Positions 12,297 to 13,487 of a stretch of DNA of 41,682 nucleotides are shown piece by piece. The notes below the pieces were generated by a model. That model was not told where the DNA came from and ran no database searches. It worked only from the letters and a program-made list of their open reading frames with translations. A program made the translations under genes and the position numbers. Source of the DNA: an uncultured Bacilli bacterium (GTDB taxonomy: Bacteria; Bacillota_I; Bacilli_A; RF39; UBA660); the NCBI GenBank assembly GCA_947626015.1, contig CANQQK010000002.1:1-41682 (forward strand). Reading direction: 5' to 3'. Position 1 is the stretch's first letter; every line of letters begins with the position of its first letter.

Positions 12297-13487
12297 CTAT
12301 TTTTTGATGTCGTTAAATTTCGTTTTACGTCCCTTTTTATTGGCAGTTTTTAGAGAGCTTTCATTTTTAGGTTCAGCACTACCACCAACGCCCATCATCT
12401 TTTCATATTCTGGGATGCCATCACCACCAGCAAACTTCAAATCTTCAGTTATTGGTTGCATAAAACCATGAGCATGACGAAGTTCATCGGTTAATGGCTC
12501 TTCATCGCCACCGATTTTCATTAAATCGGCTAGAGGAATAGCATCGCCGCCTACTTTTTCAAGGCTTGAAAATGATGGAGATGATCCACCGATACGCATA
12601 AGTCTTTCAGGAGTGATTTCTTTCTCATCTTTTCTTGAGATTCTTTCACTTCGAGGTGCTGCACCACCACCGGCACGTCTTAATCTTTCGCTAATAGGTT
12701 CAGCATCCCCACCAGCATGTCTAGCCTCATCAGATATAGGTTCAGCGTCGCCACCGATCATCTTTAAGTCTTCTAGAGGAATAGCATTACCTCCAGCATG
12801 TTTAAGTTCTTCGGTTAAAGGTTGAGCATCTCCGCCAGCATAACGATATTTTTCCTCAAGAGGTTTTGCGTCACCACCAGCATTTTTAAGTTCTTCTGGA
12901 CCTACAGCTCCACCACCGGCAGTATAGATTGAGTAGCCACTATGTCTACCTTTTTCATCATGAGAGCGACATCCACCACCAATTCCTGAAAGAATTAATT
13001 CATCATCAGTAGCTTTGATATCATAATTTCCTTTTTCATTGCTTTCATATTCAACCTTACGTTTTGGTTCTTTAGGAGATGCATCGCTACCAGAGAATAA
13101 TTCGAAAGAACTAATTATTTCTTCTGTAATGGCATTACTTCTAACACCCTTACATAATTCATCAAGATTGATATTGGTAAAGTCTTTAGAACGAATCTCT
13201 AATTCAAAACTATCACTTTTACCATTTATAGCTGCCATTTCTACTACTGAATTTTCAGCACGATCCATTACTTTCTTTAATTTTTGACTATAGTATTGAT
13301 AAAGAATCTTGCTCATAATAGCATCTTTTTTAAGTAATGCTAAAGCTTCATATTCAGCTACCGTTGATTGTTCATCAATCGTTTTTTCTGCTTCGACGGC
13401 TTTTTCTTCCAGCCTTTCATAATTATTTTTTAGTTTGGAAACCACTTGTTCCAAAACTTCATTTACTTTATTAATCTTCTCAATCAT
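12297..13487 (-). CDS. Coiled-coil N-domain protein with ~13 tandem AGGDAxPLxxxLxx repeats
   Basis: 396 aa with SD GAAGGG. The N-terminal ~130 aa are helical and charged. Residues 189-376 form a 13-14-aa repeat (AGGDAKPLEEKYRY, AGGDAQPLTEELKH, AGGNAIPLEDLKMI, GGDAEPISDEARH and so on). The C-terminus is a basic tail. Confidence 0.6.
   Translation of the reverse strand: MIEKINKVNEVLEQVVSKLKNNYERLEEKAVEAEKTIDEQSTVAEYEALALLKKDAIMSKILYQYYSQKLKKVMDRAENSVVEMAAINGKSDSFELEIRSKDFTNINLDELCKGVRSNAITEEIISSFELFSGSDASPKEPKRKVEYESNEKGNYDIKATDDELILSGIGGGCRSHDEKGRHSGYSIYTAGGGAVGPEELKNAGGDAKPLEEKYRYAGGDAQPLTEELKHAGGNAIPLEDLKMIGGDAEPISDEARHAGGDAEPISERLRRAGGGAAPRSERISRKDEKEITPERLMRIGGSSPSFSSLEKVGGDAIPLADLMKIGGDEEPLTDELRHAHGFMQPITEDLKFAGGDGIPEYEKMMGVGGSAEPKNESSLKTANKKGRKTKFNDIKK
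12360..12923 (-). repeat. Coding tandem repeat, period 39-42 nt (AGGDAxP motif)
   Basis: Read from the translation: about 13 degenerate units. On the plus strand it shows as recurring ccaccagc/ccaccgat blocks. Confidence 0.7.

Follow-up and report, generated by a model that had tools for sequence, protein, structure and literature searches.

Knowledge of the type VII secretion system of Bacillota (T7SSb) rests on a few model organisms and centres on an EsxA/EsaA/EssA/EssB/EssC core and LXG toxins. In ESX-1, the C-terminal region of the protein EspB is disordered and of low complexity and follows a helical bundle at the N-terminus, and the secretion locus also encodes the membrane-anchored protease MycP1; EspB adopts a PE/PPE-like four-helix fold and lacks a tandem motif array, and MycP is a subtilisin. 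A helical N-terminal domain with a variable C-terminus, encoded among small helical partners, is the architecture of a T7SS substrate (PMC10765036). The PGRS part of mycobacterial T7 substrates is a repeat of the GGA-GGX tripeptide type, predicted to form a structured 'sail', and a cation-binding role has been proposed for it (PMC11939664). In S. aureus, the T7SSb-dedicated wall hydrolase EssH needs a disordered N-terminal domain for its secretion (PMC13059805). Here we describe an orphan protein of 396 residues with an array of tandem 13-14-residue repeats, encoded in a T7SS locus at 12297..13487 on the minus strand of a 41,682-nucleotide stretch of DNA from an uncultured Bacilli bacterium (assembly GCA_947626015.1, contig CANQQK010000002.1, positions 1 to 41,682; the whole stretch is called the window below).

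In design, its nearest analogues are the PE_PGRS and PPE_MPTR proteins, the ESX-5 substrates of mycobacterial T7SSa, and the likeness is one of architecture only. Those proteins carry, behind a helical N-terminal secretion domain of about 100 residues, many short Gly-containing tandem repeats in a long, polymorphic array, and are encoded with T7 genes; the repeat protein has the same layout. Unlike PE_PGRS, it belongs to a T7SSb of Bacillota (its host is of a low-GC lineage of Bacilli metagenome-assembled genomes, MAGs), its units are 8-14 residues long, acidic and predicted to be disordered, it has neither a conserved PE or YxxxD/E motif nor a Pfam PE match, the repeat type differs, and there is no sequence relationship. 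With LXG effectors of T7SSb and their Lap/Esx partners it shares a conserved helical N-domain, a variable C-terminus and small helical partner genes beside essC (PMC10765036). It differs from them in having no LXG or WXG100 match in Pfam, an N-domain of about 135 rather than about 200 residues and a C-terminus formed by a disordered array instead of a toxin domain; an immunity gene is not apparent. Like EspB, it joins a helical N-terminus to a disordered C-terminus, and like MycP1 there is a membrane-protease candidate in the locus, here only a weakly assigned zincin-like protein. EssH is a parallel in that it, too, connects a T7SSb machine with wall hydrolysis and intrinsic disorder. In EssH, however, a single Sec-exported protein carries both the disordered region and the CHAP domain, whereas the disordered array described here is a protein of its own, encoded next to a SleB-like hydrolase with a T7-type helical N-domain.

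We propose, with a rough probability of 0.45, that the repeat protein is a lineage-specific T7SSb substrate or co-substrate in which a helical handle carries a disordered, multivalent array of motifs. We favour export because a conserved helical N-domain, a variable C-terminus, the absence of a Sec signal and WXG-like neighbours make up the architecture of a T7SS substrate. The N-domain would serve as the handle, its helix-turn-helix packing with partner helical proteins of the locus, and would lead to recognition and export of the protein by EssC. The array would be the exported payload, a flexible, multivalent and acidic string outside the membrane, in or on the wall, where it could work together with the SleB-like peptidoglycan hydrolase encoded alongside. 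Both export and joint action with the hydrolase are suggested by architecture and synteny only. The occurrence of other T7-type proteins with long disordered regions, in the same genome (a protein of 799 residues) and in the lineage (loci L005 and L006), also speaks for this proposal.

The linkage of the repeat gene to a divergent T7SSb is strict. The window encodes an EssC of 1543 residues (4070..8701, minus strand) with FHA and FtsK/SpoIIIE domains (Pfam FHA and FtsK_SpoIIIE), which scored 947 bits against TIGR03928 (T7_EssCb_Firm; cut-off 778). The essC cluster accompanies the repeat gene in every locus long enough to judge, nine in all (the window, L001, L002, L004, L005, L006, L008, L012 and L013). 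All nine carry essC within 10 kb of the repeat gene, together with a YukD-like gene and WXG-like small helical genes. In L007, where EssC identity is 42%, we found ordinary WXG100 genes and no homologue of the repeat protein. The T7SS link suggested in the original prediction is thus borne out. Of the roles listed there (T7SS substrate, surface fibre, immunity protein or adaptor), a structured surface fibre and an immunity protein are the least likely.

A search of 5.8 billion protein clusters returned nine relatives, 41-99% identical and all unannotated, and an exhaustive HMMER search with the family profile over 1.84 billion representatives added one distant member, P0029, of 544 residues. 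Two divergent orthologues came from loci retrieved with EssC (L005, 18723..19625; L006, 12338..13246), both in uncultured Bacilli MAGs, and a third protein search supplied seven clusters of the same subfamily (P0049-P0055). This brings the family to 17 clusters at 90% identity among the 5.8 billion (P0001-P0009, P0029 and P0049-P0055). We discarded 38 HMMER matches to the repeats only as unrelated low-complexity tandem repeats, many of them eukaryote-like, which had in common only a period of about 13 residues with GS or GG. In the protein searches no relative of the N-domain was found outside the family, and a second search with an N-domain profile added nothing. No copy was detectable with the family patterns in GTDB species representatives or in viral contigs, and a single locus, nearly identical to L006, came from a metagenome scan. 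The family is very rare, is known from metagenomes only and was found solely beside an unusual T7SS of uncultured gut or rumen-type Bacilli.

This rarity, together with the lack of known domains, could suggest a non-functional low-complexity open reading frame (ORF) or an annotation artefact, a reading that our results refute and to which we give practically no weight. The gene, which starts with ATG and ends in a stop codon at 12297..12299, is defined by the ORF listing, its homologues and its ratios of nonsynonymous to synonymous substitution rates (dN/dS). The ratios were well below 1, with 0.03-0.08 in the N-domain and 0.20-0.26 in the repeats, at synonymous divergences (dS) of 1.0-1.8 that are near saturation. 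Orthologues exist in four subfamilies with conserved synteny, and the motif residues are retained although the DNA of the units is down to 51% identity. Directly upstream of the repeat gene lies the top sigma-70-type match of a 7-kb region, which agrees with the consensus at 11 of 12 positions and has an extended -10. This promoter-like site and the ribosome-binding site (RBS) span 13495..13542 on the minus strand: TTTACA (13542..13537), a 17-nt spacer, TG-n-TATAAT (ending at 13514) and GAAGGG (13500..13495), at a distance of 7 nt from the ATG. All lineages retain this combination of -35, extended -10 and RBS ahead of their orthologues (L001, L002, L003, L009, L010, L005 and L006), including the subfamily with 8-residue units described below. 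The gene is thus real and constrained, and it is probably expressed, as its conserved upstream signals suggest. The purifying selection and these signals remove the doubt, raised in the original prediction, that the ORF might not be conserved or might not be expressed.

The conserved part of the family is the N-domain (residues 1-135; 13083..13487, minus strand), as marked by structure prediction, invariant residues and dN/dS. AlphaFold2 models were built with family alignments for two proteins, that of the window and P0002, whose array consists of 14 perfectly regular 14-residue units; the alignments were shallow, with only 9-10 sequences. For both proteins it predicted a helical hairpin with helices at residues 2-35 and 42-86, with a predicted local distance difference test score (pLDDT) of 70-78 in the window protein and 82-86 in P0002, followed by three short helices up to about residue 130. 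The coiled-coil-like N-terminal region of about 130 residues seen at first reading is helical in the model as well, and the N-domain has an isoelectric point (pI) of 4.8. The domain is present in all members, with a core of [LV]-Y-x-Y-Y-x-x-K-[LF] and an end of F/Y-[AS]-G-[SG], and seven residues (K54, I57, Y65, Y66, L108, K113 and V115) are invariant across all subfamilies. In the window protein its end is also the first copy of the repeat motif, F-S-G-S-D-A-S-P. As expected of a WXG100 or LXG protein, the predicted N-domain contains a helix-turn-helix hairpin of about 100 residues and its gene is linked to essC.

The N-domain is followed by a charged linker (residues 136-188; 12924..13082, minus strand; pI 6.1), delimited by alignment, AlphaFold2 and composition, which contains a conserved K-[IV]-x-Y-E...Y-D-I-K-x-T-D-D-E stretch and one short predicted helix (160-168). 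The repeat array then covers residues 189-376 (12360..12923, minus strand), and translation reproduced exactly the strings that the original prediction had quoted for it. That prediction counted about 13 tandem units, a fair estimate; we counted 14 of 13-14 residues each. Twelve are anchored by GG, begin at residues 189, 202, 216, 230, 243, 257, 271, 298, 311, 324, 352 and 366, and have their GG at residues 191, 204, 218, 232, 245, 259, 273, 300, 313, 326, 354 and 368. The other two are degenerate units without GG that fill gaps of 27 and 28 residues, at 285-297 (RKDEKEITPERLM) and 338-351 (HAHGFMQPITEDLK). Seven successive GG/GS anchors follow at a spacing of 13-14 residues; 20,000 shuffled versions of the protein gave at most three, and none reached seven. 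The array is acidic and hydrophilic (pI 4.8), with 37 Asp and Glu, 30 Gly and 14 Pro residues. It ends in a short basic tail (residues 377-396; 12300..12359, minus strand; delimited by alignment and composition), which with 8 Lys or Arg in 20 residues and a pI of 10.8 agrees with the Lys-rich tail noted before. The tail has the form RKTKF[NS]x[IL] in the window protein and its two closest homologues, and P[KR][KR]SS or PK[AND] endings in the remaining subfamilies. Inspection of the translation showed no transmembrane segment and, in line with the original prediction, no hydrophobic N-terminal segment and no signal peptide.

At the DNA level the units had a mean pairwise identity of only 0.51 (maximum 0.72) and mixed Gly codons, and Tandem Repeats Finder detected no DNA tandem repeat within the gene. 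Because of this divergence, the array must be old, and its motif residues are held by selection rather than produced by recent slippage. It is also fast-evolving relative to the conserved N-domain, and the units themselves vary between subfamilies. The window protein, P0002 and P0003 have the 14-residue unit xAGGDAxP[LI]xEELxx; P0004-P0008 have AGSSAAPITEELMK with a super-repeat of 42 residues; P0029 has FAGSSTPEELRVNI motifs (AGSxTPEELRV type) between irregular acidic spacers; and L005, L006 and P0049-P0055 have an 8-residue unit, [GA]S[NSD]V[EA]GE[ITL][TV], for example GSNVEGEIV. The period is accordingly 14 residues, 8 residues or, with irregular spacers, about 15-45 residues, and only G-[GS]-x-[AV] with acidic residues is common to the repeats of every subfamily. 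From 73 units of eight homologues we derived a 14-residue consensus of x-A-G-[GS]-[SDN]-A-x-P-[IL]-[ST]-E-E-L-[MKL]. In these units position 5 is Asp in 26 and the second Gly is Ser in 33.

These features bear on the idea that the array folds into a structured domain of solenoid or beta-roll type, in which GGD loops would bind cations or some other ligand and which might form a surface fibre. The regular 14-residue period with Gly-Gly, Asp and Pro invites it, and Ca2+ binding has been proposed for the PGRS repeats of mycobacterial T7 substrates (PMC11939664). In the AlphaFold2 models, however, the arrays of both proteins had pLDDT values of 29-43, largely in the 30-40 range (29-39 in the window protein), with no strands and no regular secondary structure beyond helix flickers of 3-4 residues at EELM. 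A conserved solenoid would not tolerate the change to 8-residue units in L005, L006 and P0049-P0055 or to the irregular spacing of P0029. To our knowledge, moreover, the coils of known beta-solenoids are all longer than 14 residues. The 'invariant GG-D' of the original prediction reads G-[GS]-[SDN] in the family, half of which has AGSS, and a cation-loop or ligand-binding function for it loses ground with an Asp and a period that are not conserved. We therefore consider a solenoid or beta-roll very improbable, bearing in mind that with alignments this shallow a negative prediction is not proof. Given the low pLDDT, the shifts of period and spacing between orthologues and the composition, the array is apparently, as modelled, a disordered string of short linear motifs.

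Known repeat families gave no better account of it, which agrees with its earlier description as a repeat outside the described families. Searches of Pfam, NCBIfam, PHROGs and PADLOC with the whole protein and with seven N-domain members gave no meaningful match, and PDB profile searches with the full family, the N-domain and two neighbouring helical families returned coiled-coil noise only (HA2 and designed helical bundles). Pfam showed neither RTX nor any other repeat family; for RTX and beta-roll repeats, whose units are GGxGxDxUx nonapeptides of period 9, there was no match at E<=0.1 (HemolysinCabind), and the period here is 13-14, or 8 in orthologues. The absence of strands in the AlphaFold2 models of two homologues also disfavours an RTX parallel beta-roll, a weak negative owing to the shallow alignments. 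Neither Pfam nor NCBIfam matched the repeat protein to cell-wall-binding repeats (CWB1/2, LysM, SH3b, SLH, GW), for which a signal peptide is also missing, and Pfam gave no match to KGG, GsiB or LEA-like hydrophilic repeats. We also considered P-[IL]-T-E-E-L as a phosphothreonine site (pTxxL) for an FHA domain, and dropped the idea because Ser (28 of 73 units) is commoner than Thr (20 of 73) at that position and the motif is missing from the 8-residue subfamily. The WXG100 C-terminal pattern HxxxD/ExxhxxxH fits MDRAENSVVEMA in the 14-residue clade only and was not used. Our literature search on T7SSb with tandem repeats found nothing relevant.

The immediate neighbour of the repeat gene, wherever both flanks are visible, is a SleB-like wall-hydrolase effector gene (13549..14520, minus strand; Pfam Hydrolase_2, E=2.9e-5). 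In the window the repeat gene lies, as originally described, between the listed SleB-like ORF (13549..14325) and the small helical ORFs. The listed ORF begins at a TTG (14325) and is without the first ~65 residues of an h142-type N-domain, which are kept in the L002, L001 and L009 orthologues. From the apparent true start, an ATG at 14520, the frame is interrupted after codon 16 by an in-frame TAA (14470..14472). The interruption could be due to a pseudogene, a sequencing error or a restart. The adjacency raises the question of whether the repeat protein is an immunity protein or inhibitor of this hydrolase, as toxin-immunity pairs are usually adjacent and the adjacency is conserved here. The hydrolase acts outside the membrane, however, and the repeat protein has no signal peptide or membrane anchor. 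TipC, the known immunity protein against the wall-targeting T7 effector TelC, is extracytoplasmic. In addition, the repeat gene has stayed intact beside the interrupted hydrolase gene, and the N-domain is far better conserved than the catalytic domains of the effectors. We thus regard an immunity function as very unlikely for a protein that lacks an export signal.

The h142-type domain forms the N-terminus of wall-hydrolase effectors in the window, L001, L002 and L009. Its family, which includes h142 and h128 of the window, begins with a beta-like YSNKWLxxxCP...FYVxK stretch, continues as a helical region and ends in SDxWF[GS], without a Pfam match. Its members are free-standing or form the N-domain of peptidoglycan hydrolases that are SleB-like, some with LysM (L002, 1066..2121 and 2224..3387; L001, 8522..9931; L009, 3219..4715). 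This family may be a new T7 targeting domain. In the L005/L006 lineage the SleB-like and CHAP hydrolases carry another type of effector N-domain. A second L005 effector (23808..24581, minus strand), which lies away from the main cluster, joins this N-domain to CHAP (E=1.3e-4). The effectors identified in these loci are all peptidoglycan hydrolases, and two further effector C-domains had no domain match.

Several results weigh against the proposal that the repeat protein is an exported substrate. We detected no homology of its N-domain to WXG100 or LXG domains with Pfam, PDB profiles or hhalign. Pfam searches with the seven N-domain members gave no WXG100 or LXG match (PF06013, PF04740) even at E<=10. 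By hhalign the N-domain showed no relation to the locus's remaining helical families, with a probability of 0.1% against the WXG-like family, and Foldseek of the AlphaFold2 model against the PDB found only generic hairpins (ESCRT-III and others; best E=0.14). The turn of the hairpin reads IDEQST or LDEDAT, without a W-x-G or L-x-G motif, and the N-domain has no conserved YxxxD/E motif. The partner hydrolase gene carries its premature stop in the window while the repeat gene is intact. As the alignments held only 9-10 sequences, a novel repeat fold could have been missed. Finally, tight pairing with one type of effector suits a chaperone or adaptor equally well.

The last point leads to the main alternative, that of a cytoplasmic adaptor, chaperone or scaffold that is not itself exported, which we consider credible though on balance unlikely. 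Its N-domain would bind the SleB-like effector or the machine, and its 12-17 short linear motifs would bring together multiple copies of a single partner (for example the EssC hexamer, the YukD-like beta-grasp protein or WXG-like proteins), concentrating or activating the secretion complex. The invariable adjacency to the SleB-like effector and the lack of a signal peptide are compatible with such a role, and multivalent short motifs at variable spacing are typical of docking arrays. T7SS also make use of dedicated targeting chaperones, EsaE, EspG and EspK, but the known ones are globular rather than a hairpin with a disordered region (PMC10765036), and the AlphaFold2 model of the repeat protein is a hairpin with a disordered tail, not an EsaE- or EspG-like globular alpha/beta fold. 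The motif, furthermore, is wholly different between lineages (14 versus 8 residues) while EssC remains at least 57% identical.

A similar single motif is found in opp108, a small protein encoded divergently from essC (8829..9155, plus strand) and a conserved gene of the locus. Its conserved N-domain of about 45 residues is followed by an invariant K[FL][GS]GS and then [AV]xPx[ED], a variable middle and a conserved P[ST]EQKG[PA]IxF end. The stretch K[FL][GS]GS-x-[AV]-x-P-x-[ED] resembles the repeat motif, which also terminates the N-domain of the repeat protein itself. This would fit an adaptor, but the match is statistically weak (E ~5 per sequence). A more specific idea is that the array is a multivalent control element of the T7 machine. 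Its 12-17 motif copies would dock to EssC, at the FHA or the last ATPase domain, or to the ubiquitin-like YukD, with a single copy on opp108, and would nucleate or gate the EssC multimer in a T7SSb that lost EssB, EsaA and EssA. We think this quite unlikely.

A membrane protein of the locus raises one further alternative. The conserved 461-residue bitopic protein encoded at 9179..10564 (minus strand) is zincin-like with a HEIGH motif, and its L007 orthologue matched MPTase-PolyVal at E=1e-3, below the cut-off. If the repeat protein were a polypeptide precursor, this protein might cut the exported array between units and free about a dozen signal or antimicrobial peptides of 8-14 residues, or might merely trim the array as MycP1 does EspB. 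The units are arranged head to tail with conserved boundaries, the locus includes this conserved HExxH membrane protein with an extracytoplasmic domain, and the end of the repeat, E-E-L-x-x-A-G-G, bears a loose likeness to the ends of double-glycine leaders. No C39 peptidase or modifying enzyme was found in the locus, however, GG reads GS in half of the family, the zincin assignment stays below Pfam cut-offs and the resulting peptides would be acidic and unremarkable. We accordingly see very little chance of a precursor. For the same two reasons of GS in half of the family and no C39 peptidase, a double-glycine leader or polyubiquitin-like GG cleavage was rejected as the principal explanation.

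The remaining genes complete the picture of a divergent T7SSb, of which the repeat protein would, on our preferred reading, be a substrate or co-substrate. On the minus strand of the window the order is DUF5684 protein, SleB-like effector, repeat gene, h142, h108 and h115, h128 and the 461-residue HEIGH protein, followed by opp108 on the plus strand, EssC, an 86-residue gene product in the YukD position and then topoisomerase III. The 86-residue gene (3810..4070, minus strand) is conserved after essC in all loci; its assignment to YukD/EsaB rests on size and position only, without a Pfam match. The small genes, all on the minus strand, are h128 (10617..11003), h115 (11008..11355), h108 (11437..11763) and h142 (11789..12217, likely start 12199), which encodes a helical protein of 142 residues. 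By hhalign h142 and h128 are related with 92% probability. The paralogues h108 and h115, about 100 residues long, have a central LQxNFY[SD]P turn; we infer that they are WXG100-like because the turn of their L005/L006 counterpart reads LQxWFYGP. Between them, at 11394..11408, a perfect 6-bp GC-rich hairpin with a T-run resembles a terminator on the minus strand and may divide the small genes between two transcription units.

At the edge of the locus lies a gene for a DUF5684 membrane protein with a C-terminal zinc ribbon (14534..15460, minus strand; Pfam DUF5684, E=5.4e-8). It has orthologues in L001, L002, L005, L007, L009 and L012, and L007 has kept both this gene and the zincin-like gene. 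The literature on DUF5684 yielded nothing relevant. We detected no homologues of EssB, EsaA or EssA in the window. The zinc-ribbon protein and the bitopic HExxH protein are conserved instead (window, L001, L002 and L005-L007) and may form an alternative membrane core.

Other proteins with long low-complexity regions are encoded nearby. An ORF of 799 residues (18695..21094, minus strand) has a GC content of about 0.45-0.49, against about 0.30 for the genome. About 650 of its residues are of G/S/T/N-rich low complexity (GGGSTPSGG...) and the last ~100 are a close paralogue of the WXG-like h108, so that the order is reversed, with the disordered region first and a C-terminal T7-type domain. L005 (15367..16449, 360 residues) and L006 (9105..10088, 327 residues) encode proteins of similar build, T/P/S-rich with a C-terminal WXG-like domain. 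The 799-residue gene is flanked by arrays of 3 and 10 tRNA genes at 18271..18543 and 21949..22855 on the minus strand. Farther along, a protein of 527 residues (24524..26107, minus strand) has a folded N-terminal part of about 130 residues and then a long P/A/T/E/V-rich repetitive region; its gene adjoins a YutD-like gene, lies near the sporulation gene for YunB and has a conserved counterpart in L001 (2170..3834). A teichoic-acid-type wall polymer cluster (29817..40146, minus strand) encodes a TagF-like glycerophosphotransferase, a cytidylyltransferase, an ABC-2 exporter, an acyltransferase and two DUF6020 membrane proteins. This cluster and YunB, together with Spore_coat_YutH in the syntenic L001 locus, point to a spore-forming monoderm host.

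Taken together, the observation behind the original prediction is confirmed and its interpretation is partly supported. The family is very rare and known from metagenomes only, which limits its immediate impact. The locus keeps EssC and a YukD-like gene and has all other parts replaced: by the DUF5684 zinc-ribbon protein, the zincin-like membrane protein, degenerate WXG-like proteins, a new N-domain on the hydrolase effector, and the repeat protein. Export of the repeat protein would make it, within these searches, the first Bacillota counterpart of the mycobacterial design of a helical handle with Gly-containing repeats, and would also provide a clean example of selection on a disordered motif array in a bacterium. 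Should it instead prove to be a multivalent adaptor in the cytoplasm, it would point to a novel mode of T7SS ATPase organisation.

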